Below are positions 23,227 through 42,581 of a DNA stretch of 56,608 nucleotides, piece by piece. The first letter of the stretch is position 1, and every line of letters begins with the position of its first letter. The position numbers and the translations under genes were made by a program. The notes beneath the pieces are model-generated. The model was given only the letters and a program-made list of their open reading frames with translations. It made no database searches and was not told where the DNA came from. The DNA is from Deltaproteobacteria bacterium (lineage in GTDB: Bacteria; Desulfobacterota; DSM-4660; Desulfatiglandales; B25-G16): assembly GCA_019310725.1 (NCBI GenBank), contig JAFDDT010000049.1:1-56608 (forward strand), written 5' to 3'.

Positions 23227-25173
23227 CTAGTGCTGGGCAGATGAAAGAAGCTCAGTGAATCGAGTAGCATCTAGTATCTCCGGTGCAATTTGGGTCGCAA
23301 TACGAAAGGCCATCTCAGCCAGGCTCCATTGTCGCGTGCTGCAAAATCGTTCTGAAACATCGTACAGTACACGGCCGAGACCATCTGACGAATCGATGGA
23401 AATATTGGTATTCATGCCCACAGACTTCATGATCTCCTCAAGGTTACTCGTGAGGCTATCCACATCTCCGGACAGCCAACTCAGACTTACGGCGAGGAAC
23501 CTCTTCTTTGTTGCTTCCGCCACGCTCAACCCATCTTCATCCGCCTTCTGCAAATATCTTGCTGCCTCTTCCAGGTCTTGTTGTTGAAGATACAGCCCCC
23601 CCAACCTCAGGTAAGTGCTCTTATCTTCCGGAAACAGCTCCAGCAACTTCTCGCAAGGCGCAATAGCGTTTTCAATTTCACCCAATTGCTCATATGCGAA
23701 GCTGAGTTTTGTATATGTTTCTCTCAGAGAAGGATCTAAACTAATGCTCCTTTCATAGCTTCTTACTGCTTGGGATATATCTTTTTCTTCAACCTGGATG
23801 TCACCAAATATCGTCCAAATCGCCCCCCAGGAAGGATAGACGTCCAAAAGGGCCTTCATTCTTGTGCGAGCCCCAGGCAAACCTTCTTGAACATAATAAT
23901 CCTTAAATTTCAGTAAAAGTTCCGCATCCCGGTATCCAATATTGTAGGCTATATTTAACCATTTGAGAGCATTTTTCTCCATATTCTGTTCCAGATAAAA
24001 CAGGGTTATGTTTTTGGCCATATCCAAAGGTTTTCCTTGATCCCGAAATGCCTTTTCAAAATATCCTTCTGCCTTATCAAATTCCTTTTCCAAAAAGTGC
24101 ACACACGCCATACCAAAATAGATTTCATGTCTCTTGACATAACTATTGAAATAGATTTCTTGCATCTTTTCAGGGTGTTCCTCGAACATCTGATGCACTT
24201 CAAGATATTTGCGCGACATCTCCATACATCGATTTAGATCCTTTTTCTTAAAATAGATGGCAGCTAAAAAATGGTAGGAGTTGAGGTCGAACTCAAAGAA
24301 ATCAAGCGCCTCATGGCAGATCTCCTCAGCCTTATCTAGATCTCCCAACACAAAATATCCTTGGGCCACAGTGTAATAAACAGAACTGAAGTACGAATTT
24401 CTAAGGTCCTTCCGCCGCATCAGCGCAAGGGCTACTTCTCCCTCTTCAATTGCCTTTTCAAATTCCCTGCGCATGGAATACGAGGCAGCCAGCTGGTAGT
24501 GATGATCCGGGTTTTCAGGGTCCTCGTTGATCCTTTTTTTCAGCAGAGAGGTGGTCCTTAGATGCTTTTCGTGCATCTTTTCCGGAGATAAATCATAGCC
24601 ATAATGCCGAAATCTTAATTTGGTATATGCCCCTTTGCCAGCCGTTTGCAGTTGATTGTGAACCGTTTCGGTATAGTGCATTCCCAGGCCATTTCTAAAA
24701 AGCCTGATTTGATTAAAGACACCGTGCACATTTCCTGTTTTCTCTAGGTCATGGCATTGGAGATAGAGAAAATCGGCATGGGTTTCTTGCAGGCTCCTCT
24801 TTATCTGTGGAGCATCTTCAGAGTAGAATTCCTCGTCAGCGTCCATAATCAAGACCCAATCCTTGGAGGCATACAATATAGACTGGTTCCTATGTTTGCT
24901 GAAATCGTGTTCCCATGGGTGATGGTAGACCTTGGCCCCATAGCTTCTAGCTATTTCAACTGTTCGATCACTAGAGCCTGTATCTACAATGATTATCTCA
25001 TCCACCACATCTTTAGCGCTCTCAAGGCATTGTGGCAGCAACTCCTCCTCGTTTTTGACCATCATGCAAAGGGAAATAGTGGGAAAGTTTTTTTTCGGCG
25101 CATGCAGGTATCTCGCTCTTGAGCCAGAATGCCGTTTTTTTTGTCGCCGGGTTGTCTTCTTCTTCTTGCTCAT
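23227..25173 (-). CDS. Family-2 glycosyltransferase fused to C-terminal TPR repeats (paralog 1)
   Basis: GT2 core ISLCMMVKNEEELLPQCLESAKDVVDEIIIVDTGSSDRT...IMDADE, followed by about 400 aa of TPR-like repeats. It is the last gene of the island before fliC. Confidence 0.8.
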   Translation of the reverse strand: MSKKKKTTRRQKKRHSGSRARYLHAPKKNFPTISLCMMVKNEEELLPQCLESAKDVVDEIIIVDTGSSDRTVEIARSYGAKVYHHPWEHDFSKHRNQSILYASKDWVLIMDADEEFYSEDAPQIKRSLQETHADFLYLQCHDLEKTGNVHGVFNQIRLFRNGLGMHYTETVHNQLQTAGKGAYTKLRFRHYGYDLSPEKMHEKHLRTTSLLKKRINEDPENPDHHYQLAASYSMRREFEKAIEEGEVALALMRRKDLRNSYFSSVYYTVAQGYFVLGDLDKAEEICHEALDFFEFDLNSYHFLAAIYFKKKDLNRCMEMSRKYLEVHQMFEEHPEKMQEIYFNSYVKRHEIYFGMACVHFLEKEFDKAEGYFEKAFRDQGKPLDMAKNITLFYLEQNMEKNALKWLNIAYNIGYRDAELLLKFKDYYVQEGLPGARTRMKALLDVYPSWGAIWTIFGDIQVEEKDISQAVRSYERSISLDPSLRETYTKLSFAYEQLGEIENAIAPCEKLLELFPEDKSTYLRLGGLYLQQQDLEEAARYLQKADEDGLSVAEATKKRFLAVSLSWLSGDVDSLTSNLEEIMKSVGMNTNISIDSSDGLGRVLYDVSERFCSTRQWSLAEMAFRIATQIAPEILDATRFTELLSSAQH

Positions 25174-25240
25174 TCGATAGGACCTCGTATGGGTGTAAAT
25201 TCCAATTGAAAAAGTAACGTGAGCAGGGTACTGGCTTTTC

Positions 25241-27187
25241 TTATGACCTCATAGCTGAGGATTCCTCACTCTGCATCTGCCTCAGGAGGTTTCCCGTTTG
25301 CCTGGCCTCCTCAGATAGATGCATTTTTCCATTTTGTTTCAATCCCGAACTCATCAAAAGGAATATTTCAGCCAACTCTCCGATGTCGTTTAATGTCTTG
25401 CTACAAGGAAGTTTGAGCGTCTTCAGTGTTGAATCACAAGCCTCAACGCAGTTTTCAATTTCTCCATCGAAAAGATACAGACTTGCCAGGCGCACATGGA
25501 CATCAACGAGATTCTTTTCCAGTTGAATGGCCCTTACATACATCTCTTTGGCCTTATCGTATTGCGTTGCTTCGTAATGCAAATGCCCAAGGTTTGATAG
25601 GGCTTCAACGGAATCATTCTTGAGTTCTAAAGCCCTTAGGTTATGTCTCTCGGCTTCTTTTACTGATCCTTCGTGTTTATAGGCTAGAGCGAGATTTATG
25701 TGGGCGTCCACATCATCAGGTCTTTGCTCGAGTATTTTCTTGAAATGCACTATGGCCGACTGATAGTTTCCAGATCTCAGATCAGAAATCCCTATCTCCT
25801 TGATGATCTCTATATCCTTAGATTCGAGCTTCTTGAGCCTGTTTATGGTATCGAAATATTGATCATTTTTCTTCACGGATTTATATACCCGTGCGAGGCC
25901 CAACAAGGCATCCGGATATTCGGCACTCATGTCGAGGGCAGTTCGATAATGCCTTTTTGCCAATTCCCATGACGCCCTCGCTGAATAGAAATTACCTACA
26001 ATTTTGTGACATTCTGACGGGTTTGGGGTAGAGGAGAATGCCTTGTCAAATTCCTCATTCGCTCTCTTAATCAGCTTTCGCTCCAGATAGACATCTCCGA
26101 GTGCAAGGTGAACCCGCCATTCCTCATTAACGGTATTTTGCATGATATTCCCAAATCTGGCCGGGTCTTCTCTCAGTGCCTTCACAATATTAAGATAGTG
26201 ACTACACACTGACTCTAAGGAATTCCAATCTCGGGTCTCATGATAAACGTTAACCAATATGAAATACGAATCGAGATGTTGAGTGAAAGCCTGTAACGCC
26301 ATGTGAGCATATTTTTCCGCATTGCTCAGGTTCTCTAACTTTAGATATGCAAAGGCAGTTATAAAGTATGTCCAGGGAATAAGTGCTTCCTGACCATGAG
26401 CGTTTCTTCGTGCCATTTCAAGAGCCCTAATCCCTTCAACAACAGCCTCCTCGAACATATGGTTGCTCAAATAGCATGCAGCCAGATCATGTCTGTGCCG
26501 ATATACATCAGGTTCCGTTTCAATCTGTTTTTTCAGGAGTGAAGATGTCCTGGCAAATTTCTCTCTCCGTTTCTCTAAACTGAGATCATAACCATAGTGA
26601 TACAAATAAATAGCATAGGCTCGGGAAGAGGTATATCCAGCGAGCCTGTTATGCACCCTGCCGACATACGAAATCCCTGGATTATTTCTAAAAAGTCTGA
26701 CCTGATTGATCCAGCCTTGGCTCATGTGATCATTCATGTAACTGATTACCGTTACCATGACACTATCAATGCCATCATCCCTTATGGCCGCTCTTACAGC
26801 ATCTCTTGAGTCTCCCCTTAGTTCTTCATCTGCGTCTATGATAAAGATCCAGTCACCAGATGCGTAGCCTATAGATTGATTACGATGCTTGCTGAAATCA
26901 TTCTCCCATGGATGATGGTAAACCTTGGCCCCGTAGCTTTTGGCTATTTCAACGGTTCCATCCTTTGAGCCTGTATCTACAATGATTATCTCATCCACAA
27001 CATCCTTAATGCTCTCAAGGCACTGCGGCAACAGCTCCTCCTCGTTTTTGACCATCATACAGGCAGAAATGGTAGGGGACGTCTTTTTGCCTTCTCCACT
27101 CTTAATGCTTTGAGCTTTCCTCTTCTTGCTCTCGTTCTCAGCCATATTTAGCGAACTACCGTTCAGTTGTGTTACAGCAAAGGGCAC
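25241..27187 (-). CDS. Family-2 glycosyltransferase fused to C-terminal TPR repeats (paralog 2)
   Basis: GT2 core ISACMMVKNEEELLPQCLESIKDVVDEIIIVDTGSKDGT...IIDADE plus TPR repeats. The start is uncertain (GTG 27187 or ATG 27145). Confidence 0.8.
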   Translation of the reverse strand: MPFAVTQLNGSSLNMAENESKKRKAQSIKSGEGKKTSPTISACMMVKNEEELLPQCLESIKDVVDEIIIVDTGSKDGTVEIAKSYGAKVYHHPWENDFSKHRNQSIGYASGDWIFIIDADEELRGDSRDAVRAAIRDDGIDSVMVTVISYMNDHMSQGWINQVRLFRNNPGISYVGRVHNRLAGYTSSRAYAIYLYHYGYDLSLEKRREKFARTSSLLKKQIETEPDVYRHRHDLAACYLSNHMFEEAVVEGIRALEMARRNAHGQEALIPWTYFITAFAYLKLENLSNAEKYAHMALQAFTQHLDSYFILVNVYHETRDWNSLESVCSHYLNIVKALREDPARFGNIMQNTVNEEWRVHLALGDVYLERKLIKRANEEFDKAFSSTPNPSECHKIVGNFYSARASWELAKRHYRTALDMSAEYPDALLGLARVYKSVKKNDQYFDTINRLKKLESKDIEIIKEIGISDLRSGNYQSAIVHFKKILEQRPDDVDAHINLALAYKHEGSVKEAERHNLRALELKNDSVEALSNLGHLHYEATQYDKAKEMYVRAIQLEKNLVDVHVRLASLYLFDGEIENCVEACDSTLKTLKLPCSKTLNDIGELAEIFLLMSSGLKQNGKMHLSEEARQTGNLLRQMQSEESSAMRS

Positions 27188-27202
27188 ATTTGTGATTCGT
27201 GA

Positions 27203-28316
27203 TTACACTGTTCTTGTTGCTACTTCCTCTACCGTTCTGATTACATAATCAATCTCATCCTCTGTTAATCTTGGGTATAAAGGCAGGGAAATAGTGGAAT
27301 TGCCGATACGCTCTGCTACCGGAAAACTACCTTCACCCTTGCCAAACATTTTCCGAAACTTCGTCAGCAAATTGATGCTTCTATAATTAACGGCTACTCC
27401 AACGCCCTTTTGTTGCAATCTTTTCAAGATGTCATCACGTCTTTTTGGATCCACCCATATGGTAAATAGATGGTATCCACTTTTGGCGTTAGCGTATAGC
27501 TTAGGAGAATCCACATCTTTCACAGACGAAAGGGCCTTCAAATACCTTCTGTATACATATTCTCTTCTCTTCCAGTATTGTTCAACCTTTGCAAGCTGAG
27601 GCATGAGAAGCGCAGCCTGGATATCACTCATATTGTATTTCCAGCCCAATTCAAGCAGATCCCAGTGTTTATATTCTTCGGTGTATCGCTCTGCGGCTTC
27701 TTTATTCATTCCGTGAAGTCTAAGAATCCGAATATTCTCGGCGAGTTTCTTTGAGTTTGTGGTTACAGCGCCCCCTTCACCTGAGGTGATGCTCTTGGTG
27801 GCATAGAAACTGAAGCACCACCCTTACTCCATCTCTCTCGCTTTCCAACGCGTGAGCAGCATCTTCGATGACAAAGACTCCGTGTTTGTCTGCTAGCTGC
27901 CTGATTCGCCTCATATCACACATCTGACCATACAGATGCACCGGGAGGATGGCTTTGGTGTTTTCCGTAATCGCATTCTCCACCAGATCCGCATTCAGGT
28001 TCCCGGTATTCTCTTCGACGTCTACCCAGACCGGCTTCGCACCGCAATGTATGATCGCTGTTGACGTCGCAACGAAGGTCATTGGAGTGGTAATGACCTC
28101 GTCTCCAGGACCTATGTTTAATGCCAAAAGGGACAAATGCAATGCGGCGGTGCAGCTCATAAGTCCAACACAGTAGTGCGCACCAACATAATGTGCCAAA
28201 TTGCACTCAAATTCATCGACCACCTCACCGCTGGTCAGAAACACAGAATCGAGAACCCTAATGACTGATTCCTTCTCCTCAGATCCGATATTGTGCTTGT
28301 AAAATTCTATTTTCAT
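27203..28316 (-). pseudogene. DegT/DnrJ/EryC1-type PLP sugar aminotransferase, split by a frameshift
   Basis: Two ORFs (27777-28316 and 27203-27709) are the N and C halves of one aminotransferase. Reading the downstream frame upstream of its Met gives FSFYATKSITSGEGGAVTTNSKKLAENIRILRLHG (PLP-lysine motif). That frame is closed by TAA just before it, so the shift lies near 27810-27830. Confidence 0.75.
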
Positions 28317-28335
28317 GATCCTAAAGTGTAATCAC

Positions 28336-29364
28336 TCAATGCATGACGACAGTTCCGTCTTTCATCTTGATGGGTATCTGCCTCATCCATCTTAGCGGTT
28401 CCCACCACCGCTGATTACTTGCATACCAATCAATTGTTAAATCAAGCCCGCTATCAAAGTCAGTTTCCGGCTCCCAGTTCAGGAATTTCTTCGCCCGTTC
28501 AGTTGAAGCAACGTGTTTTTCAACTTGTCCGGGCCTATCATTGACATAGGTGATTAGATCCAGCGGCTTATTCATCTTATTTAATACTGTCTCCGCTATC
28601 ATCTTGATAGTAATAGCGGTGCCGGTTCCGATATTGACAGCCTTTCCATATAGATCTCGATTTTCACTGTGTAAAACGGCATCCAGCGCCTTGCAATGAT
28701 CCCCAACATATATCCAATCGCGAGAGGCACTGCCGTCACCATGAATTGTGAGGGGCTCATTCAAGATAGCACTCGTTATGAAACGAGGAACCGCTTTCTC
28801 TAGGTGTTGATGTGGACCATAATTATTGAAGGGTCGGATGATCACCGCTGGAATTTCATAGGTCTTCCAGTATGAATAAATGAGGCGGTCGGCCCCTGCT
28901 TTTGCACTTGCATAAGGACTGCAGGGTAGTAATGGATGATTTTCTGTCATCGGTGTTTCGACAGCGCTTCCATATACTTCCGAAGTTGAGACGTGGATGA
29001 GCTTTTTGATTCTTCCGTTATTCTTTAAGATCGCATTGCAAATAGTCTGAGTCCCTAATATATCTGTTTCAAAAAAGACCTTATTGTCAAATATAGATCG
29101 TGCCACATGGGTTTCTGCTGCAAAATGAACCACATAGTCTGCTTGGGCTACCAGGTTATTTACAATCTCAGAATTCCTGACGTCACCATACCAAAACTCA
29201 AACCGATTATCATTTTTGATCAGGAGGTTGAAATTGTCGGGATTTCCTGCGTAGGTTAATGCATCCAAGACCACAAAGTGATAATCTGGATACTTCCTAA
29301 ACATGGAATTAATAAAATGGCTTCCGATAAAGCCAGCTCCACCAGTAACTAATATGGTCTCCAT
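28336..29364 (-). CDS. rfbB: dTDP-glucose 4,6-dehydratase (RmlB-type SDR)
   Basis: ILVTGGAGFIGSHF, HFAAETHVARSI, TSEVYGS and SPYASAKAGAD (YxxxK). ATG 29364 overlaps the upstream stop (TAATG). Confidence 0.8.
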   Translation of the reverse strand: METILVTGGAGFIGSHFINSMFRKYPDYHFVVLDALTYAGNPDNFNLLIKNDNRFEFWYGDVRNSEIVNNLVAQADYVVHFAAETHVARSIFDNKVFFETDILGTQTICNAILKNNGRIKKLIHVSTSEVYGSAVETPMTENHPLLPCSPYASAKAGADRLIYSYWKTYEIPAVIIRPFNNYGPHQHLEKAVPRFITSAILNEPLTIHGDGSASRDWIYVGDHCKALDAVLHSENRDLYGKAVNIGTGTAITIKMIAETVLNKMNKPLDLITYVNDRPGQVEKHVASTERAKKFLNWEPETDFDSGLDLTIDWYASNQRWWEPLRWMRQIPIKMKDGTVVMH

Positions 29365-30059
29365 TATCTTAGCTCCCTTTTCCCTGTTAGATAATCCAGA
29401 GATTCTGGACCGCAATTGAAAAGAAGGTCCACTACTGATAAATGCGGAACGAAGCCTCCGAATAATTGAGGATATTCTGGATGCTTATAGTTGTGATACT
29501 TGACCTTGATGCCCCTTTCCATGAACTGGTCTTCTTCAATGTAATTCCTCCCTGCATCTCCACTCAAATACTCACGTGCGCCCAGTTCGACACAGATATT
29601 CACCAACCGCTCAGTACTATTACCATCTACCTTTAGTGCAGATGAATAGACAATATTGGCCTTAATATTGAGGACATCTTTAAAGCATACGATCAGCTCC
29701 ATATTAAGGTCGATTAGGTATTTGTGGTTCTTCCCAAGTATCTCCTTTATAGAGGGAAAATAGTCCTGGAAATACCTTGCCCTTGCATAAGCGGCACTGA
29801 TGGATTCAGCATGCTTTAAGTTCCATGCTGTGTCGTAGACTATCATTGCTTCACTTATCAGTTGACCTCTCCTGTCCTTTGACAATACCGGAACCGACAA
29901 CCATAAAGGTCCACTTTGGGTCTTGATTCGATTTCTCGATCTCCAATCTCGTTTTGTATATTGAACATCATCATAAATTACGAAAATATCTGCCCAGTCC
30001 ATTTGGTCGAAGAACCCAAGCCAAGGCAGATAACTCGGTTGTAGAATCACACACTTCAT
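29364..30059 (-). CDS. WbqC-family protein
   Basis: MKCVILQPSYLPWLGFFDQMDWADIFVIYDDVQYTKRDWRSRNRI...LWLSVPV matches the WbqC-like family pattern. ATG 30059 has GAGGAA upstream. Confidence 0.7.
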   Translation of the reverse strand: MKCVILQPSYLPWLGFFDQMDWADIFVIYDDVQYTKRDWRSRNRIKTQSGPLWLSVPVLSKDRRGQLISEAMIVYDTAWNLKHAESISAAYARARYFQDYFPSIKEILGKNHKYLIDLNMELIVCFKDVLNIKANIVYSSALKVDGNSTERLVNICVELGAREYLSGDAGRNYIEEDQFMERGIKVKYHNYKHPEYPQLFGGFVPHLSVVDLLFNCGPESLDYLTGKRELR

Positions 30060-30176
30060 ACTCGATTCCTCGATCACAGAGTACCTTTGAGCAGCATCGA
30101 TGGGCGGAGTTACAGCAGTTCATATCCGGCATTCTACATATCGGGCGACTCCTCTTCAAAGATGGGAGTCTAAGAT

Positions 30177-34279: not shown

Positions 34280-34289
34280 GATCTCTTCC

Positions 34290-35039
34290 TTATATCCTCA
34301 ACCCACCGTCAATTTCTAAAACCCTTCCATTAAAAAAATCGCTCTTGAGAATGAACACTATACCATCCGCAATTTCCTTAGGTTTAGCCATTCGTCTGAG
34401 TGGTGTATCTCGAATCCAGTTACTCAGGATAGTCTCACTCATTGATCCTATTGTGGTATCTGTCTTTGTAAAACCAGGGGCAATCCCTGCCACTCGAATA
34501 CCCAGAGTTCCCAATTCTTTAGCCCAGGTGACTGTCAGAGCAACGACCCCTGCCTTAGCCGCAGAATAGGCACTCTGTCCGATGTTTCCTACCGCGGAAA
34601 TGGAGCTAACGTTCACAATGACACCTTTAGTTCTTTGTGAGACCATTCTACGGACCACTTGGGTGGTAACATAAAAGACTGAACTTAAATTTGTGGATAT
34701 GATTTTGTCCCACATCTCAATATCATGGCTCACTATACCTCTCGGACCCAGGGCTACCAGTAATGCACTGTGGACGATCCCAGCATTGTTAACCAACACG
34801 TCAATCCTTCCAAACTCTTTAAAGAAATCATCCACTGCTGTCTCGACTGAGTCCGGCTGACTCACGTCGCAGGCCCTGCAATACAAACTAGAATAACGGC
34901 CTCCCAGCCTCAGGAGGGCCTTCTGGTCAATATCTAAAACACCTACAATGGCCCCCTCATCAACTAGCTGATCTACAAGGACCATACCGATACCGCTTGC
35001 CCCTCCGGTTACGATCACCCTTTTTTCATTGAGATCCAT
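34290..35039 (-). CDS. Short-chain dehydrogenase/reductase, FabG-like
   Basis: VIVTGGASGIGMVL (TGxxxGxG), NNAG and YSAAKAGV (YxxxK). Confidence 0.8.
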   Translation of the reverse strand: MDLNEKRVIVTGGASGIGMVLVDQLVDEGAIVGVLDIDQKALLRLGGRYSSLYCRACDVSQPDSVETAVDDFFKEFGRIDVLVNNAGIVHSALLVALGPRGIVSHDIEMWDKIISTNLSSVFYVTTQVVRRMVSQRTKGVIVNVSSISAVGNIGQSAYSAAKAGVVALTVTWAKELGTLGIRVAGIAPGFTKTDTTIGSMSETILSNWIRDTPLRRMAKPKEIADGIVFILKSDFFNGRVLEIDGGLRI

Positions 35040-35050
35040 AGGTCCACTGT

Positions 35051-35281
35051 CTACGGTTTCTTACTTTGTAGAATTCCTATGATCGCGGAAAACCTAGTCA
35101 TTTCGACGATTTCATCCATGCTCAACATGGGGATATCAAAGTTTTCCTCAATGGCAACCATAAGTTCCATATGTTTCAAAGAGTCCCACGAAGCAATGGT
35201 CTCCATTGACGATTCCTCATTTATTTGGTCAGCACCGATCTCGAGAACATCCGACATGATTCTCTTTAGATTATTCTCCAT
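35051..35281 (-). CDS. Stand-alone acyl carrier protein
   Basis: 76 aa, acidic. The WDSLKHMELMVAIEENFDI segment carries the DSL phosphopantetheine-serine motif. Confidence 0.75.
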   Translation of the reverse strand: MENNLKRIMSDVLEIGADQINEESSMETIASWDSLKHMELMVAIEENFDIPMLSMDEIVEMTRFSAIIGILQSKKP

Positions 35282-35402: not shown

Positions 35403-36317
35403 CTATTCCACCAATACCGCATATCCACAACCGGACTTGCCATACCCATTACCGTTGTAAAGCATATAATTACGCGCTTCATGTTTGAAAACAAAGGGAT
35501 AGCAAATCATCTCGCTGTCCCAGCCTTGCGGAGAGACATCGATTCCAACAGTATCGTCCATGCGTTTCCACGATAGGCCATCTTTTGATTCTGCATAGCC
35601 TGCTCGGTAGGTATTCCATCCCCCCCTATGGCTGTACCACATTTTGTATGTACAGCCTTCTTGATAAACGACCGGTCTGGCAATAGCATATTCATCCTGC
35701 CTCAGGTCGATACAATCCAGTCCTTGTGGATTCCAATTCAACCCATCGAGTGACTCAGCGTAACGAATATGGTAATAGTGTTTCGATTTAGGATCGTTTT
35801 GGACTACTTCCCAGCCAGTTCCAGAAACGTACCACATCCGCCATATTCCATTTTCCTTAGTTACCCAGGGCGAAGCCGTCAGATACGGATCGTGCTCAGT
35901 TCGGCCTAAAACTGGAGCCTTTGAATACCTCTCATAGGTCTTCCCACCGTCTTCACTTATCGCAAGGCCAATAAAGAAAGAAAACGGTGTTACCACCTCC
36001 TGTTTCCACCCCGTGTAGTACATGTATTTTTTCGAGTCGGAATCAACTATACACGACGGCATGACTCCACAGTCATCGAAACATCCCAGATCACCAAGAT
36101 CTATGGTAGGTTCCGGTGTTATGTATAAGAGTTTTACGGAATCTTTGAAATCAACAGATGCATATCCTCCCCGTGCTCTATTTGCTCTGTCCCTCCCTGC
36201 AAAGTGGACTTTATATAGGCTATTTTCTACGTTCTCAACAAATGGATTTTGTGCATAAGTGACCATCCACTCGAACGTACCAGGTTGAATAAGCAAGCCC
36301 TTTTTTAGCCATCTCAT
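35403..36317 (-). CDS. Predicted beta-propeller glycosidase-like protein (GH32/43/68-clan-like), function unknown
   Basis: Repeated W/Y-rich blades (WRMWYVSGTGW, YKMWYSHRGGW, YMLYNGNGYG). This is only a fold-level guess. ATG 36317 follows the upstream stop in TAACATG. Confidence 0.35.
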   Translation of the reverse strand: MRWLKKGLLIQPGTFEWMVTYAQNPFVENVENSLYKVHFAGRDRANRARGGYASVDFKDSVKLLYITPEPTIDLGDLGCFDDCGVMPSCIVDSDSKKYMYYTGWKQEVVTPFSFFIGLAISEDGGKTYERYSKAPVLGRTEHDPYLTASPWVTKENGIWRMWYVSGTGWEVVQNDPKSKHYYHIRYAESLDGLNWNPQGLDCIDLRQDEYAIARPVVYQEGCTYKMWYSHRGGWNTYRAGYAESKDGLSWKRMDDTVGIDVSPQGWDSEMICYPFVFKHEARNYMLYNGNGYGKSGCGYAVLVE

Positions 36318-36318
36318 G

Positions 36319-36954
36319 TTACGTGATCTCATATTTCTTAACTAATATTGTAAACTCATAGAGGCCGTAGTCATGAAGCAGAGCTACATTTTTGGAATAA
36401 TTGCGCTTACAGTGATCAAACACAACACACGGGTCCGCATAATACAAATAGTCTTTCATATGTTCTCTATCTGAGTATTGTGTTAGCATGTTAAAGGCAA
36501 AACCCTTTTTACTTAGGTGATTAATTCCTTCAAGTATAGCTAAAACATACTCTTCCCACTCTTCATAGCTTCTGTCTAATTTGATATTAAAAATTCCACT
36601 TGCCACCGTGTAATCTGCCACAGTCAGACACGCTTCATCCGTAAAGAAACAGCACTGTTCCAATTCCCCATATAATTCTCTGGCCGTTTCACACATCTTG
36701 CCTGATATTTCAAATCCTCGATACTGAAACGAGTAATCTCCATCAGTCATATACTTAACCAGTGCTCCATAGCCACAACCGTAATCATTTATGGAAAAAA
36801 CCAGGTTTCTATCACAGATCTTTAGTAGTTGCTCAAATCTCAGCGTTTGTGACTGGGGAGAATTCCAGTCCACCCCCTTAGCTGTAGCGCCATAGGTGAC
36901 AATCTTTTCGTTATAATATTGCCTAACTCCGTCAATGATGCTATTGAACTGCAT
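36319..36954 (-). CDS. Class I SAM-dependent methyltransferase
   Basis: Motif I INDYGCGYGALVKYM. 211 aa. Confidence 0.7.
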   Translation of the reverse strand: MQFNSIIDGVRQYYNEKIVTYGATAKGVDWNSPQSQTLRFEQLLKICDRNLVFSINDYGCGYGALVKYMTDGDYSFQYRGFEISGKMCETARELYGELEQCCFFTDEACLTVADYTVASGIFNIKLDRSYEEWEEYVLAILEGINHLSKKGFAFNMLTQYSDREHMKDYLYYADPCVVFDHCKRNYSKNVALLHDYGLYEFTILVKKYEIT

Positions 36955-37072
36955 GCCTGCTGGCCCGCTTTCTCACTATTTTCAACTGATATTCCAAACT
37001 CAATACATGAATAGCCTTACGACTTACTTGCTATATTTCGTACAATGTTTTGTGATTGATCAATTTTCCCAT

Positions 37073-37446
37073 ATGGCCTATTGACTTAGCTGACCCAACT
37101 TTTTGGACATCAACTCATCCCTAGTTATAGTGCTTGTAGAGGCACAAGCAAACAATAAGCGATGAAACACTTCCCTTCCCCAAAACCTCCGATTGAAACG
37201 ATAACATACTTCTGAAAGATAGCTTTGGAGATGTTTTTTGATACACCTCCATCTGAGCCAGCAAAAACTGCTTTTACATTTGCAATGATCTTATTAGTCC
37301 AAGGTAGTGCCTTCATAAAAGCCTTGGGATCGCGAAGAACAGCACTATGATGAACTTATACCCAGCTTTGTCGTCACAGTCTCATAACCCTACATTACCC
37401 ATGGAGTTCGTGATAAATAATTGGGTCAGCTAAGTCAATAGGCCAT
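37073..37446. mobile_element. MITE-like nonautonomous element: perfect 26-bp terminal inverted repeats with 6-bp target-site duplication
   Basis: Left TIR atggcctattgacttagctgacccaa (37073-37098). The right TIR at 37421-37446 is its exact reverse complement. Flanking direct repeat TCCCAT at 37067-37072 and 37447-37452. Only a 63-aa non-transposase-like ORF lies inside. Confidence 0.8.
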
Positions 37447-37607
37447 TCCCATAATATATTCATATTCTGACTCTTGTTACAGGAACACTTCTTTGGACAA
37501 AAGAAACAGAAGGACATGCCCTATCGATTAGGTCAAGGAAACCCTCCCACAGGGGATGGCCTGACTGAAGAACTGTCACTTTCTTTACTCCCTCAAAATC
37601 ATATTCT

Positions 37608-40600
37608 TCAATGAAGGGAAATTTTTCCATAACATTCAGTCAAATTTTTGATCATATTCTCTTTACCGTAAGCATACAGCCTCTCTCGGTTTTCTCTGGC
37701 AAACCGTTTTTGCAGTGATTTGAGATTCCCAGCTGCATGGAGCAGAGTCTCTCTGACACTTTTCCCATCAATCTTCGTTCGCAACACATTCAGCTTGTGA
37801 TCCAAAATGCCATCAATGTCAGATGTATCCTGAACAATCGTAACCGCTCCTGAATATGCTGCTTGAAGTGTTGTGCCGGAGAATCCCTCATCATGGACCG
37901 CGAGAGAATAGACGATGTTATGTGACTTAATTAGTTCTGCAAATTCTGCCTGCGATAGAGAGTGCGGAATAAAATCGCAGTACTGGGCCACACCCAGCGC
38001 CTTTGCCATTTGAATCATTCTTTCAAAATATTCCCTGCCCTGGTTTGGATTTTGGCCTATTATAAATGTGGCCTTTGTAGCAGGAAATTTGTTGACAAGA
38101 TATGGGATTGCCTTAACGAGAAGATCTTGACAATAGAACTCTCCCATCACTCGCGCAGAGAGAATCTTCGGGGTATCACTAATTTTTCGTATTTGATCAT
38201 AAAGGGAAAGGTCAATTAGAGGACGGAAGAAAACATATTTTTCAGCTGGCAAGTTGCCATAATATGACTGGTATCGTTTGAAAACATTGGGCATCCCGTG
38301 TAAAAAATAGTCCAGAGTTTCGATGCACCGTTTTTCATAATGATTCGCAACTCCATTGGGATACTTCATAGTTTGCGAAGACCATGGTACCAAGACACTG
38401 CGAATACCAAATCTGATTTTTGCCATCCAGACAGGGATACAGCTATACGTTAAGGAGTGTCCGTGGACAATATCAGGCGCTTCTTTTTCGAATGCCGTTT
38501 TCAGAAACTCTTCTAGCCGTCCCTCTAACTTTAGCCGTTGCCAATCGGGGCTCTCATAACCCCTGTAGGGAAAATAATACACAGGAATATGTTTTGGTGT
38601 GATAGCGGTTTCCGGAGGATAGTAACTAATTACACATTGCTCATATCCTCTCTTGTCTAGTTCTTCTATAATGTCAGATACATGGACAGAATGAGCACCG
38701 CCAATATGACATATCTTAGGCTTATCTTTGATCTTAGCCTCGGCCCTGGAAGGATGAGTCTTTTTGCGCCCTGTATCATTTGTTACGTACTTGAACTTTC
38801 CTCCCTTGGTCAAAGGAATATCCTGAACATATTGGAAATTAATGCTGACGTTGTCATCAACTTCTTTTATTTTGCTGTGAATATAATCCTCATCGTTTTT
38901 GGAAAAACCAATTTCTTTTACAATTTTTACCAAAATGGATTTCTCTTCATTTTGAATAAATTGATATGCTCTCATGGGTAAGTGATTAATCATATTGCAT
39001 AATTCTGTTCCATTAATAATAGCATTGGGAGTCGTCAGGTAATCCGTTACCCTTCCCTTAAGATCTCTTATTAGTGGCAAGGTCCGCCCGCAAGCACAAC
39101 GATCATGTGTGACTCTTGCAAGGTCATCAGACTTATAGCGAATCCACGGCATCACCAGATTATAAAGATGGGTACACGTGATGATGCCTTCCTGATTTGA
39201 ATCCACCCTTTGATTCTCTTCACTGAGGAGTTCCAGCAAGAAGATCTCGTGAGAAATATGGAAACCATCATGGTTTTCACACTCCATTGCGTTCGATCCA
39301 CCGTCATTGACGCCATAGGTGTCAAAGACCTCTCCCAAGTGTTTGCTAATGCGTTGTCTTTGTGAATCGAGTAACACTTCACTTGTTAAGAAACTAGCTT
39401 TCCCTTTAATGTTTTCATTTAGTTCCAACTTCTCAAGATAACTGCAGAACAAATCCATCAAATACGGCAAGCCCCTGTAGAACTCAGGATTGTATGTCAG
39501 AATCTCCTGATAAACCCTTAATGCTGTCTCATCCGTGAAGCCGAACATCTCTATTTTCTTGCCGCCCTGAGGGCCCAACCCGCCTCCAGCAATAGTTAAC
39601 AGTCTACTGTTTTCCTTCCACCCGGCCCATCTCCAACCCCTTCTCTGTGTACAGTCAATGGATTCTGCCTGTTCCTTTGAAATAAGATAATTAAAAGGCC
39701 TTCCAGTCGAGCCTCCTGTATTTCCGTGGTAAAAGCCAAATTGATCTGCATTATCCGCGATAAAATCCCTTATCTGCTTTCTCATTACCATCTTGTCAAC
39801 GACCGGTAGTTTCTCAAGATCCTCAAATGCCTGGATGTCTTTAGGCTTAAGGCCTCTGTATCGCATTTCCTTTTTCCAAAATGGGACATGGTAATAGGCC
39901 TGTTTTATAAGATTCTCCAAAAGGAGGCCATGATGTTTCAAAGCTTCCGTTTTATCCCAATATTGTGATTCAAAAAGATCGATATCTTTTATGGACGGGG
40001 CAAAGATTCTATCCTTCTTAATTACATTAAAATGCCTGCCCTCCTCTTCTGTTTTAAACACCTCCCGAGCTGTTTTCCTTGCAATAACCATTTGCCCCAA
40101 TAAGTTATCAGTTGTAGAGGCGAAAAGAGCTGTCTCCTCATGGATTTTTTTCAGTACAGCTCTATCAAAATATTCCTCTATTTTAGCATTCTTACTGATC
40201 CCATCTTTGGAAAGCTCGGCTTTCAACTTCTTGAGGGAGCTAGCTGTGGCACCCGACTTTTCAAGGAAATCTCGACTTGTCTTTCTTGTTTCATAGCTCT
40301 TATGAAGGCGAATTTCAAAACCAGCCTTATGGATGGCTAATTCTAAAGACTTTTTCGAAAAATAGTAAAGATGATTGGGTACTTCCAGGAACCTTGTCCC
40401 AATTGAATCATCGAGGAACCGTTGCTCTATATGGTAAATGAGTGCGCCACAATTTGGAACGCTCAAAAAAACCACGCCGTTGTTCTTTAGAATACGCCGT
40501 ACCTCAACCAGGAACCGTATTGGATCGGGCAAATGCTCCAGAAGTTGGTTGAAAATAACGATATCAAATGTTTCTTCAGGGAAGTTGAAGTCGAAAATAG

Positions 40601-42581
40601 TTCCGCATTCTAGATCCAAACCATATTTCTGCCTGCCATACTCGATAAAATACCTGTTCAGATCGATTCCTTTGCATTCATAGCCGATATCCGCAAATTT
40701 TTTGAGAAACAGGCCATCAAAACAGCCGACCTCCAGAACCTTTTCTCCGCCCCTCAATTCGGTGTTTTCAGAAATGGTGGCGAAATACGTTTCATAGGTT
40801 TGTTTGTTCTGTTTGTGGTTTGCCTCTATGGCTAGGTTCAGATCGTTATTCCATCTCTTTTTCTTCTCTTGCTCTGAATACCACTGTTTTGAGAATTCCT
40901 CGGTGGGAACTGGATGAACAAAGCGCAGCTCACAGTCGCGACAGAAGATCACGTGGAAATCGTATATCTTCTTGATGCGCTCCGTGTGCATGCTTCCACA
41001 TATACGACAAGGCACACACCTTGAGCCCATATCCAAAGATTCTCTTACTCCTATCCCCTCAATTCGAGACCCTCGATTCATTACTTGCCTATAGAACTGT
41101 TCAAGCCGTGCAATTTCCTTTTCGTAGGTGAATACCTGTCTTGAGAAGTCTGTTATCTCAGCGATCTCCTTTAATCGAGACACGTTTTTGGTTATATCCT
41201 CTTTATTCTGAAATGTAATTCCCACAGGATTCGTGCTGAAGTATTCGATATAGCTTCTCAGAGGGGATGCCAACACCGGGAGGCCAGCTGCAAGGTATTC
41301 GAATAATTTGTTGGCGATGGTTGAATCGAGGAAGCGTTTGTTTCCCTTCTCCAGGTTAAAGGGTATAATGCCAAAATCGAATTGGCTCATCGCCTCGATT
41401 ATCTGTTTAGGCGACAAGGGGTTGCTGTAATGGATATTTGGAAACTCCGAGAAATACCGAGCGATCTCTGTGTCGTAAAATGTAGGATAAATGTGTATAT
41501 GGTTTCCCAGCTTGGCGAGTTGGACAAATAAGGAGAAGAAATCCCGATGCCCGTTCCCTCCAATGCCTCCTTCGTAGACAATGTGAACTTTACCATCCCG
41601 GGCAGAAAGTTTTGGTAAACTGTTTTTAGGTAAATCGGATTCCGATACGTAATTGTAAAGAACCAGAGAGGGCCCATTAACGCCATACAGCTTCTGTGCC
41701 TCTTCCATTTGATACGGCGTCGTGTAGACCCTGCCGGTGGCTCCGCGATTTGCCACACCCTCGAAATAAGACAAATTCAGATCCCCGTTTGCCCGCAATG
41801 AGATTAAATCATGTGTGTCGTGGATTACCGGTGCCTCTCCAGCCAGAGCGGCAACAGTCAATATATCTGGCTCGTTATGACAATGAACGATATCGTAATG
41901 CCTTGATATGTCCCAAAGCTGGCGAAAATTCGATATATGAATATTCTCGTCATACACATCATCACTCAACCCTTTATACATTTGACTCAAACGCGCCTTG
42001 GTATAGGCTAGGGAAATCCTATGGCCTCTGGATCGCAAGGCAGTGGCCATTTTGTAATTGCGAATGCACGGTGCTTCCTGAACAAAAAGGATGTTGAGGG
42101 GCTTTTCGCTGATCGCAATCCTTGGAGCAGAACCCTTTTTCTCAAGTGCTCTTAAGGAATCTGCAACAATTTGTTGATCAGGATTCAGTTCAAGGGATTT
42201 TTTCAAGGTCACTCGAGCTTTTTCAGTCTCGGCCATCTCCAAATAGATCGTGCCAAGCTGATTAAAGAGATTGGGATCCGTATTCTCGATCTCGATGCAC
42301 TTTTCTAAATGAATACAAGCCTCTTTCCAGCGCTTGGTGTTCTGGTATAAGTCTGCCAAATTAAGTAGCGCATCGAGGTACTCTTCCTTGGCGGCGATAG
42401 CTTTTAAGAATAGGTCTTCAGCTCCTTTAACGTTACCTTTGGCATGCTGGATTACCCCAAGATTATTGAGGGTTTCAGCATTCATTGGATCATTTTCCAA
42501 CAGATCCAAAAAGCACTTTTCCGCCTCTTCAATTTTTCCTTCAGCAAATAATGCTTCGCCCTGTTTTATGGGGTTTTCCAT
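37608..42581 (-). CDS. 1657-aa multidomain enzyme: TPR, GT4-like glycosyltransferase, Zn-ribbon + SAM methyltransferase, CapK/phenylacetate-CoA-ligase-like adenylating domain, second GT4-like glycosyltransferase
   Basis: TPR repeats in the first ~160 aa. GT-B-like region (FEYLAAGLPVLAS). Zn-ribbon CVPCRICGS...CRDCELRF plus methyltransferase motif VLEVGCFDGLF. NTGGSTGRPFNY (adenylate-forming motif). C-terminal GT4-like region (VHGHSLTYSCIPVW...). ATG 42581 has GGAGG 9 nt upstream. Confidence 0.75.
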   Translation of the reverse strand: MENPIKQGEALFAEGKIEEAEKCFLDLLENDPMNAETLNNLGVIQHAKGNVKGAEDLFLKAIAAKEEYLDALLNLADLYQNTKRWKEACIHLEKCIEIENTDPNLFNQLGTIYLEMAETEKARVTLKKSLELNPDQQIVADSLRALEKKGSAPRIAISEKPLNILFVQEAPCIRNYKMATALRSRGHRISLAYTKARLSQMYKGLSDDVYDENIHISNFRQLWDISRHYDIVHCHNEPDILTVAALAGEAPVIHDTHDLISLRANGDLNLSYFEGVANRGATGRVYTTPYQMEEAQKLYGVNGPSLVLYNYVSESDLPKNSLPKLSARDGKVHIVYEGGIGGNGHRDFFSLFVQLAKLGNHIHIYPTFYDTEIARYFSEFPNIHYSNPLSPKQIIEAMSQFDFGIIPFNLEKGNKRFLDSTIANKLFEYLAAGLPVLASPLRSYIEYFSTNPVGITFQNKEDITKNVSRLKEIAEITDFSRQVFTYEKEIARLEQFYRQVMNRGSRIEGIGVRESLDMGSRCVPCRICGSMHTERIKKIYDFHVIFCRDCELRFVHPVPTEEFSKQWYSEQEKKKRWNNDLNLAIEANHKQNKQTYETYFATISENTELRGGEKVLEVGCFDGLFLKKFADIGYECKGIDLNRYFIEYGRQKYGLDLECGTIFDFNFPEETFDIVIFNQLLEHLPDPIRFLVEVRRILKNNGVVFLSVPNCGALIYHIEQRFLDDSIGTRFLEVPNHLYYFSKKSLELAIHKAGFEIRLHKSYETRKTSRDFLEKSGATASSLKKLKAELSKDGISKNAKIEEYFDRAVLKKIHEETALFASTTDNLLGQMVIARKTAREVFKTEEEGRHFNVIKKDRIFAPSIKDIDLFESQYWDKTEALKHHGLLLENLIKQAYYHVPFWKKEMRYRGLKPKDIQAFEDLEKLPVVDKMVMRKQIRDFIADNADQFGFYHGNTGGSTGRPFNYLISKEQAESIDCTQRRGWRWAGWKENSRLLTIAGGGLGPQGGKKIEMFGFTDETALRVYQEILTYNPEFYRGLPYLMDLFCSYLEKLELNENIKGKASFLTSEVLLDSQRQRISKHLGEVFDTYGVNDGGSNAMECENHDGFHISHEIFLLELLSEENQRVDSNQEGIITCTHLYNLVMPWIRYKSDDLARVTHDRCACGRTLPLIRDLKGRVTDYLTTPNAIINGTELCNMINHLPMRAYQFIQNEEKSILVKIVKEIGFSKNDEDYIHSKIKEVDDNVSINFQYVQDIPLTKGGKFKYVTNDTGRKKTHPSRAEAKIKDKPKICHIGGAHSVHVSDIIEELDKRGYEQCVISYYPPETAITPKHIPVYYFPYRGYESPDWQRLKLEGRLEEFLKTAFEKEAPDIVHGHSLTYSCIPVWMAKIRFGIRSVLVPWSSQTMKYPNGVANHYEKRCIETLDYFLHGMPNVFKRYQSYYGNLPAEKYVFFRPLIDLSLYDQIRKISDTPKILSARVMGEFYCQDLLVKAIPYLVNKFPATKATFIIGQNPNQGREYFERMIQMAKALGVAQYCDFIPHSLSQAEFAELIKSHNIVYSLAVHDEGFSGTTLQAAYSGAVTIVQDTSDIDGILDHKLNVLRTKIDGKSVRETLLHAAGNLKSLQKRFARENRERLYAYGKENMIKNLTECYGKISLH

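Follow-up and report, generated by a model that had tools for sequence, protein, structure and literature searches.

Flagellin glycans influence how susceptible cells are to phages, how the immune system recognises them and how the filament assembles. Campylobacter, Tannerella and other pathogens carry N-glyceroyl and related hydroxyacyl groups on sugars of their flagellin, S-layer and LPS, and a 2017 Tannerella study called the genetic basis of such groups 'a major challenge'. Flagellin viosamine islands with an acyl branch that depends on an ACP are already published for Pseudomonas syringae and P. aeruginosa; the viosamine island of P. syringae pv. tabaci 6605 and the a-type island of P. 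aeruginosa PAK contain vioA, vioB, vioS, vioR, acp, vioM and vioT (PMC3927599). There, a FabH-like ketosynthase III (vioS) makes an acetoacetyl unit, which then becomes 3-hydroxybutyryl. The flagellin glycosylation locus of Campylobacter jejuni contains an FkbH-domain gene, cj1302 (PMC7099621), and C. jejuni flagellin carries N-(2,3-di-O-methylglyceroyl)-pseudaminic acid, whose glycerate-derived N-acyl group was found chemically. A search of the literature found no paper assigning cj1302 a function.

FkbH-family enzymes convert 1,3-bisphosphoglycerate to glyceryl-S-ACP, the glyceryl intermediate being carried on a conserved C-terminal Cys. Their partners in the methoxymalonyl-ACP pathway are the FkbK/FkbI dehydrogenases and the O-methyltransferase FkbG. 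For the attachment step the closest described protein is GmaR of Listeria monocytogenes, a 637-aa GT-TPR flagellin O-GlcNAc transferase (PMC9638930).

The island described here lies in a 56,608-nt stretch of DNA, analysed whole and called the window below, from an uncultured Desulfobacterota-like bacterium that resembles sulfate reducers. We interpret it, with a probability of roughly 0.6, as a flagellin O-glycosylation island composed of two portable modules and protein glycosyltransferases. Comparative genomics resolved the modules as a sugar arm (DegT, WbqC, methyltransferase, NeuD-like and GH130-like genes) and an acyl arm (FkbH, ACP, B12 radical SAM and SDR genes). Like the Pseudomonas viosamine island, it has an aminotransferase, a left-handed beta-helix N-acyltransferase, a stand-alone ACP, a FabG-like reductase, a methyltransferase and a very large glycosyltransferase. 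Compared by family only, 6 of 6 analogues (of vioA, vioB, acp, vioR, the methyltransferase and the large glycosyltransferase) are found, that of vioA being broken. For both islands the proposed product is an N-hydroxyacyl 4-amino-4,6-dideoxyhexose destined for flagellin. They differ in that a vioS-type FabH-like ketosynthase III is absent from all window ORFs, an FkbH loader and a cobalamin-dependent radical SAM enzyme being present instead. WbqC and the GH130-like propeller fall outside the seven Pseudomonas genes, and the GmaR-like GT2-TPR glycosyltransferases are likewise unlike those of the viosamine island. What is new is that FkbH and a cobalamin radical SAM enzyme replace the ketosynthase in a known viosamine-type design, in a cassette that is widespread and unstudied.

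The locus of C. jejuni NCTC 11168 is alike, by domain description, in placing an FkbH-domain gene among flagellin glycosylation genes, but its scaffold is a nonulosonic acid and that proposed here a 6-deoxyhexosamine. FkbH/OzmB-type glyceryl-ACP synthases (of methoxymalonyl-ACP and tetronate pathways) share with our enzyme the DxDxT motif, the invariant C-terminal Cys, a dedicated ACP and an above-cut-off score; the context here, in contrast, is a glycan locus without polyketide synthase, and FkbH is partnered by a B12 radical SAM enzyme and a classical SDR. The GT2-TPR proteins have the domain order and size of GmaR. GmaR, however, transfers plain GlcNAc and is the MogR anti-repressor, while the window holds two diverged paralogues, and Listeria is without a biosynthetic cassette of the kind found here. 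With TokK and CysS the radical SAM enzyme shares an N-terminal B12-binding domain and a radical SAM core, although it is only distantly related to them (about 63 bits across about 215 residues). We know of no precedent for an ACP-tethered glyceryl unit as the substrate of a cobalamin radical SAM enzyme.

The island and its flagellar neighbours

All island ORFs are co-directional on the minus strand, packed in the manner of an operon, from 42581/42590 down to 23227; every gene and promoter given below is on that strand. An earlier note on this DNA had described a single same-strand run from 42581 to 23227 that ends 570 bp upstream of fliC, and this was verified. Its count of 13 ORFs was not: mechanical calling gives 14, with the DegT gene split in two. 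Two junctions that it had singled out are present, TAATG at 29366–29362, where the WbqC stop overlaps the RmlB-like start, and TAACATG at 36321–36315. Its picture of generally tight junctions holds for these overlaps and for gaps of 5–11 nt, the range found between the ACP, SDR, NeuD-like, radical SAM and FkbH genes, but not for other gaps of 653, 121, 99 and 67 bp. Each of its family assignments was recovered by Pfam/NCBIfam profile searches, and so was the stated lack of rmlA and of a NeuB-type nonulosonate gene. Homologues of RmlA, NeuB, PPTase, Wzx, ABC-2 and AglB are absent across the whole window. The earlier gene inventory stood as to the families named and fell short in omitting the GH130-like gene, a 211-aa methyltransferase and the five-part architecture of a 1657-aa protein.

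The 653-bp gap, between the gene for the 1657-aa protein and the methyltransferase gene, contains a 374-bp MITE-like element (37073–37446). It has 32-nt inverted repeats (37073–37104 and 37415–37446) with promoter-like hexamers between them and a TCCCAT duplication, and it recurs in a sister contig (L001). A phase-variable invertible promoter (inverton) was rejected for this segment, given the target-site duplication, the lack of a recombinase in the window and the same orientation in the sister contig; we read the element as a MITE or IS remnant. Within the island, sigma-70 promoter-like sites number 23, against 37.7 in shuffled sequence, and were therefore set aside as evidence. Scanned whole against Rfam, the window had no match to a riboswitch or to any other RNA family at the gathering score.

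The run begins with the 1657-aa multidomain protein (37608–42581), whose ATG at 42581 is preceded by a GGAGG Shine-Dalgarno sequence. Pfam domains, a CapK_C annotation match and NCBIfam PaaK/FlxY/DVU1553 matches give it TPR, GT4-like, class I SAM methyltransferase, PaaK/CapK-like adenylate-forming (about aa 870–1250) and C-terminal GT4 domains; it has no TM segment. The run ends with two GT2 + TPR proteins that are 36% identical. Paralogue a (25241–27145, 634 aa from ATG) is a GmaR/SunS-like protein glycosyltransferase, matching the NCBIfam SunS family at 107 bits. Paralogue b (23227–25173, 648 aa) is a GmaR-like protein glycosylase candidate, whose GT2 domain (residues 30–216) matches Listeria GmaR (PDB 22ao) at E 9e-32 and also matches SunS.

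The presumed acceptor, the 370-aa flagellin FliC (21544–22656; Flagellin_N/C in Pfam), has 27% Ser+Thr in its central domain versus 11% in its termini. A sigma-28-like promoter, TCAAGTTT-N12-TCCGATAG, was read from the sequence upstream of fliC at 22940–22967 by comparison with the sigma-28 consensus, and a strong terminator lies at 21487–21456. Pfam identified fliD (16786–19881), fliS (15901–16344) and flaG (14989–15339), flagellar filament genes (14989–19881) that define the context.

Genes of the acyl and sugar arms

The FkbH-family enzyme (30177–32000, 607 aa) consists of FkbH_N, HAD-IIIC and a C-terminal domain, and scores 296.8 bits against TIGR01686 (cut-off 146.65) over residues 241–568. 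In an alignment of 18 homologues, D244 and D246 of its LDCDNT motif (HAD DxDxT) are invariant, as is S514-C515-R516 (SCR). Its sole match in a sequence search of solved structures was an uncharacterised Bacteroides protein, 3slr. Relatives are common, with at least 589 matched stretches in a one-genome-per-species collection. The stand-alone ACP (35051–35281, 76 aa) has a WDSL phosphopantetheine site and scores 22.3 bits against PF00550 (cut-off 20.8); of 87 loci, 67 have an ACP in the 10-kb flank of FkbH, in most cases directly downstream. The FkbH DxDxT motif and the Ser of the ACP's DSL, on which the earlier note had staked its reading, are thus both present.

The FabG-like classical SDR (34290–35039, 249 aa), with TGGASGIG and YSAAK motifs, scores 160 bits against Pfam adh_short and 244 bits, under the cut-off, against the NCBIfam 3-ketoacyl-ACP reductase family. 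It accompanies the ACP irrespective of loader type. The cobalamin-dependent (class B) radical SAM enzyme (32016–33593, 525 aa) combines PF02310 B12-binding and PF04055 Radical_SAM domains and has the CxxxCxxC motif as CKNRCSYC. Among solved structures TokK and CysS come closest (E about 1e-16). KedN5, the top-scoring NCBIfam family, gives 92.7 bits where the cut-off is 700, so that the enzyme is not a member of that equivalog. From its sequence it is probably a C-methyltransferase, although it could methylate the sugar rather than the acyl unit. It is paired with FkbH in every full cassette (see below), and the two are kept together in L087, where the scaffold is a nonulosonate.

The NeuD/PglD/VioB-family left-handed beta-helix N-acyltransferase (33599–34279, 226 aa) scores 182.6 bits against TIGR03570 (cut-off 160.8); its closest solved relatives are PerB, PglD and VioB. 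In a neighbor-joining tree without bootstrap, the NeuD-like proteins of loci with ACP and SDR form their own clade, and the window's protein is inside it. To our knowledge, the NeuD/PglD-family enzymes characterised so far use acyl-CoA. From co-occurrence only, we infer that this one uses an acyl-ACP donor.

The sugar arm is joined by an RmlB-type NDP-hexose 4,6-dehydratase (28336–29364, 342 aa). Its score against TIGR01181 is slightly under the cut-off (344.3 versus 365.1 bits), and its best solved relatives are all dTDP-glucose 4,6-dehydratases. The RmlB catalytic triad is TDE. Here STSEVYG replaces STDEVYG, and because of this TSE the nucleotide sugar is uncertain.

The DegT-family sugar aminotransferase gene (27203–28316) is disrupted. 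Its two ORFs, 27777–28316 and 27203–27709, cover profile positions 3–159 and 207–359. Alignment to the sister contig, an otherwise 99.8%-identical JGI sequence, places a 20-bp deletion between 27818 and 27817, after which the PLP-lysine (FYATK) is out of frame. Restoring the 20 bp gives an intact 377-aa protein, and the gene is intact in the sister contig over the stretch that the contig covers. The best family match is PseC, whose score of 355 bits falls short of the 423-bit cut-off. The aminotransferase proposed earlier is thus upheld as to family, but in this contig the gene is a pseudogene.

Three further genes belong, by co-occurrence, to the sugar arm and not to the acyl arm. The WbqC-family protein (29364–30059, 231 aa; PF08889, 271.6 bits) gave a confident model (pLDDT 93.3) with weak fold matches to BshC (E 2.8e-3, TM 0.46), then to TyrRS and a cytidylyltransferase; these matches to HUP-class Rossmann enzymes are too weak for a functional assignment. 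The idea that WbqC substitutes for the absent RmlA is weakened, since L010, L170 and other loci carry both. The 211-aa class I methyltransferase-like protein (36319–36954) has weak NCBIfam methyltransferase hits only, and its homologues adjoin NeuD-like/GH130-like genes in 28 of 40 loci. The 304-aa product of 35403–36317 is, from its AlphaFold model (pLDDT 93.9) and Foldseek, predicted to be a five-bladed beta-propeller of the GH130/GH43/GH137 fold. Its best Foldseek matches are BT_0996 and beta-1,2-mannan phosphorylases (TM 0.72–0.76); Pfam GH130/GH43 matches are below cut-off. It is the most conserved member of the sugar-arm module, with homologues 55–74% identical, none of them named. The predicted fold is clear, and no activity follows from it.

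A possible pathway

We infer the acyl chemistry and flagellin as its target as follows. Going by family membership, the RmlB-type dehydratase would convert an NDP-hexose made elsewhere in the genome to a 4-keto-6-deoxy sugar, which DegT would aminate to an NDP-4-amino-4,6-dideoxyhexose. The 211-aa methyltransferase, WbqC and the GH130-like propeller may tailor or handle this sugar. On the acyl side, a glycolytic phosphoglycerate would be dephosphorylated on the HAD domain of FkbH and the glyceryl unit passed through the conserved Cys to holo-ACP. The cobalamin radical SAM enzyme may then C-methylate the ACP-tethered glyceryl unit, and the FabG-like SDR alter its oxidation state. The NeuD-like enzyme, whose clade is always found alongside ACP and SDR, would take the acyl group off ACP and attach it to the amine of the sugar. 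Finally, the soluble GT2-TPR pair and the 1657-aa protein would glycosylate Ser/Thr residues in the central domain of flagellin while it is still in the cytoplasm and not yet exported, and they probably attach other sugars too. In the sequenced window this pathway is cut at amination by the 20-bp deletion; the gene of the sister strain is intact. As DegT is broken, the product of this copy may be no more than a truncated glycan, or nothing at all.

Distribution of the cassette and alternative explanations

The full cassette of ACP, SDR, NeuD, radical SAM and FkbH genes was found in 12 distinct loci of bacteria and archaea; besides the sister contig, full-cassette loci are L002, L004, L005, L010, L085, L086, L090, L168, L169, L170 and L172. 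PPTase genes lie inside the sister cassettes L010, L086, L087, L088 and L170. In L088 and L171 an AMP-ligase loader takes the place of FkbH and the radical SAM enzyme, while ACP, SDR and NeuD are retained. The ACP+SDR clade of NeuD-like proteins, the cassette PPTases and this loader swap are comparative support for an acyl arm that feeds the NeuD-like transferase, as the earlier note had proposed. They also divide the system into separable modules: a loader (FkbH with radical SAM, or AMP-ligase), a carrier with tailoring (ACP with SDR) and a transferase (the NeuD clade).

The cassette is a concrete, testable gene set for N-glyceroyl-type chemistry. Tentatively, and at somewhat less than even odds, we propose that FkbH, the cobalamin radical SAM enzyme, ACP, SDR and the ACP-associated NeuD clade form a widespread route, in bacteria and archaea, that puts a C-methylated glycerate-derived N-acyl group on 6-deoxyhexosamines and nonulosonic acids. 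If true, it would be the missing genetic basis of N-glyceroyl-type substituents on flagellins, S-layers and polysaccharides, and would bring in two new enzyme activities: a radical SAM enzyme that methylates a glyceryl unit tethered to ACP, and a PglD-type transferase that depends on acyl-ACP.

A flagellar setting is not the rule for this cassette. Most homologous cassettes lie away from flagellar genes, several with polysaccharide export or archaeal N-glycosylation genes: full cassettes are found beside an ABC-2 transporter (L010), an ABC ATPase (L168) and sulfation genes (L169), with a Wzx-like flippase (L085), and with archaeal AglB and Wzx (L086), and of 40 sugar-arm loci, 6 include ABC-2 and 5 include NeuB. 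No flagellin gene was found in 172 loci, a negative weakened by flanks of only 10 kb in the GH130-centred set. The island could thus serve a surface polysaccharide, LPS O-antigen or general protein glycosylation, its adjacency to fliC being a coincidence of a variable island. In keeping with this, island proteins are singletons at 90% identity whereas flank proteins have 65–67 cluster members, as expected of a swap-prone island. Yet the window contains no flippase, polymerase, ABC transporter or polyprenyl-phosphate transferase, the island lacks genes for membrane proteins, flippases and transporters and encodes no protein with a TM segment, and the GT2-TPR pair resembles the protein/peptide glycosyltransferases GmaR and SunS, not polysaccharide synthases. 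Moreover, an independent Bacillota MAG (L170) has the whole cassette, plus RmlA, between flgN-flaG and flgB-fliI. We consider this non-flagellar explanation unlikely. The flagellin target proposed earlier keeps the support of the fliC/fliD/fliS/flaG neighbours, the GmaR-like pair, the lack of an export gene and the Bacillota flagellar cassette, and loses that of a generally flagellar cassette. It is very improbable that the FkbH, ACP, radical SAM and SDR genes instead make a free small molecule or lipid of tetronate or polyketide kind. All characterised FkbH enzymes that we know of feed polyketide or tetronate pathways, and the literature found linking FkbH with glyceroyl units concerns polyketides only; however, no ketosynthase, acyltransferase, NRPS or thioesterase was found in any window ORF, sugar genes are interspersed among the four in the 12 distinct cassette loci, and the FkbH-ACP pair occurs in nonulosonate loci too.

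The same genes could also be a decaying remnant that no longer makes the modified sugar, leaving flagellin bare or with a shorter glycan, which we regard as rather unlikely. The out-of-frame PLP lysine of DegT and the MITE-like element between the two halves of the island favor decay, and strain-level losses are published: cj1302 is a pseudogene in C. jejuni 12664 (PMC7099621), and P. syringae groups III and IV are without vio genes (PMC3927599). Against this, the remaining 13 ORFs, all intact, match the sister contig at 99.8% identity; that contig shares the MITE-like element and has an intact aminotransferase over the stretch covered. As the sequence is a metagenome assembly, a lone 20-bp indel could also reflect misassembly or a minority variant. 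The strain-level break in DegT is an example of within-population variation of such islands.

Island layout and enzyme families

The minus-strand ORFs of the island run continuously from 42590/42581 to 23227 in a mechanical ORF list, which counts 14 of them; the earlier note had 13, the difference arising because the aminotransferase gene lies in two pieces. The first gene starts with an ATG at 42581 with GGAGG ahead of it, and the run ends 570 bp upstream of fliC (21544–22656, Flagellin_N/C), as had been claimed. The TAATG overlap of the WbqC stop with the dehydratase ATG (29366–29362) and the TAACATG junction (36321–36315) were likewise exactly as described. Tight spacing in general applies only to part of the island: 5–11 nt separate the genes for ACP, SDR, the NeuD-like enzyme, the cobalamin radical SAM enzyme (rSAM) and FkbH, but other gaps measure 653, 121, 99 and 67 bp. 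The 653-bp gap, between a giant glycosyltransferase gene and the remaining island, is partly filled by a 374-bp element (37073–37446) whose ends are 32-nt inverted repeats sharing a perfect 24-nt core (GGCCTATTGACTTAGCTGACCCAA); a TCCCAT direct repeat borders it. The element looks like a MITE or what is left of a decayed IS. The window has a single copy, and L001, a JGI sister contig, carries it too.

Pfam and NCBIfam profile searches recovered all the families that had been assigned by eye. FkbH scored 296.8 bits on TIGR01686 (cut-off 146.65) and the NeuD/PglD/VioB-family transferase 182.6 on TIGR03570 (cut-off 160.8); the stand-alone ACP was slightly over the PF00550 cut-off, and the FabG-like SDR matched adh_short. 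A B12-binding and radical SAM protein, WbqC (272 bits), an RmlB-type dehydratase and DegT were also found. Two motifs whose absence had been named beforehand as grounds for refutation are present, LDCDNT in FkbH and WDSL in the ACP. FkbH residues D244 and D246 and a C-terminal Ser-Cys-Arg were invariant among 18 homologues compared; the radical SAM protein carries CKNRCSYC, and the SDR TGGASGIG and YSAAK. Closest solved structures were the cobalamin-dependent C-methyltransferases TokK and CysS for the radical SAM protein, PerB, PglD and VioB for the NeuD-like protein, and exclusively dTDP-glucose 4,6-dehydratases for the dehydratase. Among the proteins that the earlier note left undescribed are a 211-aa methyltransferase-like protein (36319–36954) and a 304-aa protein (35403–36317) predicted to fold as a five-bladed beta-propeller of GH130/GH137/GH43 type (pLDDT 93.9). 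On the whole that note observed largely correctly, and its interpretation is partly supported.

The confident model of WbqC (PF08889; 29364–30059; pLDDT 93) has no close solved relative. Its best matches, all weak, are the HUP-class Rossmann enzymes BshC, TyrRS and a cytidylyltransferase, which hints that WbqC might act on the amino sugar in a nucleotide-dependent manner.

No homologue of RmlA, NeuB, PPTase, Wzx, ABC-2 permease or AglB was found within the window, bearing out the claim that it holds neither rmlA nor a neuB-type gene. The dehydratase (28336–29364) has STSEVYG in place of STDEVYG, a form it shares with its closest relatives, those of L088, L161 and L092 (L-numbers denote loci fetched with FkbH or GH130-like homologues). 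RmlA was not detected in those three loci, of which L092 is a contig of only 1.6 kb, whereas the STDEVYG form stands next to RmlA in L010, L170, L165, L094, L132 and L137. From this pattern one may speculate that a nucleotide sugar other than dTDP-glucose is used here, a difference that might account for the absence of rmlA.

A broken aminotransferase

DegT is split into 27777–28316 (profile positions 3–159) and 27203–27709 (positions 207–359). L001 matches the window at 99.8% identity across 14,317 bp; the two differ by nine mismatches and a single gap. At that gap L001 has 20 bp (GCCAACTCGCGGATGCGGCT) that the window lacks, between 27818 and 27817. Putting them back yields a 377-aa DegT protein whose frame includes the FYATK lysine. 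The top family of this protein is PseC (355 bits, under the cut-off of 423), and ArnB, perosamine synthase and QdtB are its top structures. With DegT split by the 20-bp loss, the window as sequenced would be unable to make the amino sugar. The break may be a genuine strain variant or else an assembly fault.

Two modules and their distribution

We searched a one-genome-per-species collection with FkbH and obtained at least 589 matching stretches. Relatives of ∼600 aa are very common, the closest named genome among the matches listed being 50% identical. Of 87 loci, 67 have an ACP no more than 10 kb from FkbH, mostly directly downstream. The full cassette of ACP, SDR, NeuD, rSAM and FkbH occurs at 11 loci besides L001, making 12 distinct loci with the window: L002 and L004 (FkbH 63–66% identical), L005 (a Phycisphaerae MAG), L010 (a Methanospirillaceae archaeon), L085, L086, L090, L168, L169, L170 and L172.

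Partners of the GH130-like propeller, counted across 40 loci of at least 8 kb, gave a different picture. The NeuD-like gene accompanied it in 35, DegT in 30, and the 211-aa methyltransferase and WbqC in 28 each, whereas ACP was present in 4 and FkbH in 1; the usual order is WbqC-GT2-MT-NeuD-GH130like-MT-DegT. There are therefore two separate modules, a sugar arm (DegT, WbqC, methyltransferase, NeuD-like enzyme, propeller) and an acyl arm (FkbH, ACP, rSAM, SDR), which the window joins. The methyltransferase, WbqC and the propeller are placed in the sugar arm by the genes with which they co-occur.

The sugar-arm module WbqC-GT2-MT(211 aa)-NeuD-like-GH130-like-MT-DegT, free of ACP and FkbH, is widespread in metagenomes (L094, L104, L112, L122, L165 and ∼25 others). 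Its GH130-like members are all annotated as hypothetical, and it may make a specific N-acetylated, methylated amino sugar.

Several patterns are evidence that the acyl arm would feed the NeuD-like transferase. L088 and L171 keep ACP, SDR and NeuD but carry an AMP-binding ligase in place of the FkbH and rSAM loader; in them the shared ACP-SDR-NeuD core would receive a hydroxyacyl group by a different route. FkbH and ACP also occur beside NeuB and a CMP-transferase in the nonulosonate loci L087 and L173, the former of which has rSAM as well. The rSAM accompanies FkbH on differing sugar scaffolds, and SDR accompanies ACP under differing loaders. Sister cassettes L010, L086, L087, L088 and L170 have their own PPTase. 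In a neighbor-joining tree of 64 NeuD-like sequences, built without bootstrap, those of loci with ACP and SDR form one clade apart from ∼50 ACP-less ones, some of whose labels may stem from short contigs. L088 additionally encodes two ACPs and a D-2-hydroxyacid dehydrogenase beside its PPTase.

Neighbors of the cassette vary: an ABC-2 permease and RmlA (L010), an ABC ATPase (L168), a Wzx-like flippase (L085), AglB/STT3 with a Wzx-like flippase (the archaeal L086, JGI Ga0480573_000027), and sulfotransferase and PAPS genes (L169). In L170 (Bacillota MAG GCA_049323615.1) the whole cassette is flanked by flgN-flaG and flgB-flgC-fliE-fliF-fliG-fliH-fliI, and the locus holds DegT, WbqC, PPTase, ACP, SDR, NeuD, rSAM, FkbH, methyltransferase, GH130-like, RmlB and RmlA genes. 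These settings mark the cassette as a modified-sugar module of general use that has entered flagellar loci on at least two occasions, in phyla far apart. The archaeal cassettes L086 and L010 point to the same acyl sugar, presumably in N-glycans or surface polymers of archaea. No fetched locus contained a flagellin gene within its flanks of up to 10 kb; for the GH130-centred set this absence is weak evidence, because fliC in the window lies 12.7 kb from the GH130-like gene.

A proposed route to flagellin

The families, motifs, synteny and co-occurrence were observed; from them we infer every chemical step and the acceptor of the following route, to which as a whole we assign a probability of about 0.6. 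The RmlB-type enzyme and DegT would form an NDP-4-amino-4,6-dideoxyhexose. FkbH would load a glycerate-derived unit onto the ACP, where the radical SAM enzyme would C-methylate it and the SDR would set its oxidation state, and the NeuD-like enzyme would transfer this acyl unit to the sugar amine. Flagellin would then be decorated in the cytoplasm by GmaR-like GT2-TPR proteins and a giant TPR-GT fusion.

Both 648-aa island proteins are GT2 plus TPR. In one of them the GT2 domain has matches to the peptide S-glycosyltransferase SunS and, at E 9e-32, to the glycosyltransferase domain of GmaR, a 637-aa GT-TPR enzyme of Listeria that transfers GlcNAc to flagellin (PMC9638930). The product of the first gene (37608–42581) is a fusion 1657 aa long, which joins TPR, a GT4 domain, a methyltransferase, an adenylate-forming domain of PaaK/CapK type and another GT4 domain. 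Hydrophobic segments of transmembrane strength are absent from all island proteins, and Ser plus Thr make up 27% of the central domain of flagellin against 11% of its termini. The adenylate-forming domain of the fusion (residues ∼870–1250; PaaK/CapK/F390-synthetase-like, GGSTGRP motif) suggests that a carboxylate or amino acid may be ligated ATP-dependently somewhere in the glycan.

The closest published design is the viosamine island of Pseudomonas syringae and its P. aeruginosa PAK counterpart (vioA, vioB, acp, FabG-like vioR, FabH-like vioS, vioM and the 1173-aa VioT), which makes N-(3-hydroxy-1-oxobutyl)-2-O-methylviosamine for flagellin (PMC3927599). Its logic is retained in the window, which lacks any ketosynthase and has FkbH and a radical SAM enzyme in its place; this is not a new category of system. 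Campylobacter jejuni 11168 has an FkbH-domain gene, cj1302, within its flagellin glycosylation locus (PMC7099621), and its flagellin bears N-(2,3-di-O-methylglyceroyl)-pseudaminic acid. We found nothing in the literature that ties cj1302 to the di-O-methylglyceroyl group or characterises such an FkbH enzyme in glycan synthesis, and a 2017 Tannerella study called the basis of N-glyceroyl groups "a major challenge". The system matters because it delimits an acyl-donor cassette that is widespread, modular and uncharacterised, and because its aminotransferase shows an apparent break at the population level.

A putative sigma-28-like promoter (TCAAGTTT-N12-TCCGATAG, 22967–22940) lies ahead of fliC, and a terminator with a 14-bp stem follows the gene. 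Downstream on the same strand as the island come a toxin-antitoxin pair and then fliD, fliS and flaG. Flank proteins (DctM, GlcD-like oxidase) have relatives of at least 90% identity in Desulfatiglandales, Deltaproteobacteria or Desulfobacteraceae MAGs, and for FliC and the island proteins the clusters at 90% identity have one or two members. This fits a probable hypervariable island within a Desulfobacterota-like genome.

Directly upstream of the island, 43438–45436 holds a MerR-family regulator, a HepT/MNT (nucleotidyltransferase) toxin-antitoxin pair and several small ORFs without Pfam match, at a GC of 0.42 against 0.48 further right; it may mark the island boundary. The pair between fliC and fliD (20451–21396), within the filament operon, consists of a 217-aa nucleotidyltransferase toxin of AbiEii type and a 96-aa DUF6922 partner. 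Beside the filament genes, 6207–14957 carries six response-regulator genes with HD-GYP or HDOD and a CheD-HDOD fusion, a cluster suggesting that motility may be under c-di-GMP-linked control. The filament cap protein FliD (16786–19881) is unusually long at 1031 aa and contains Flagellin_IN motifs.
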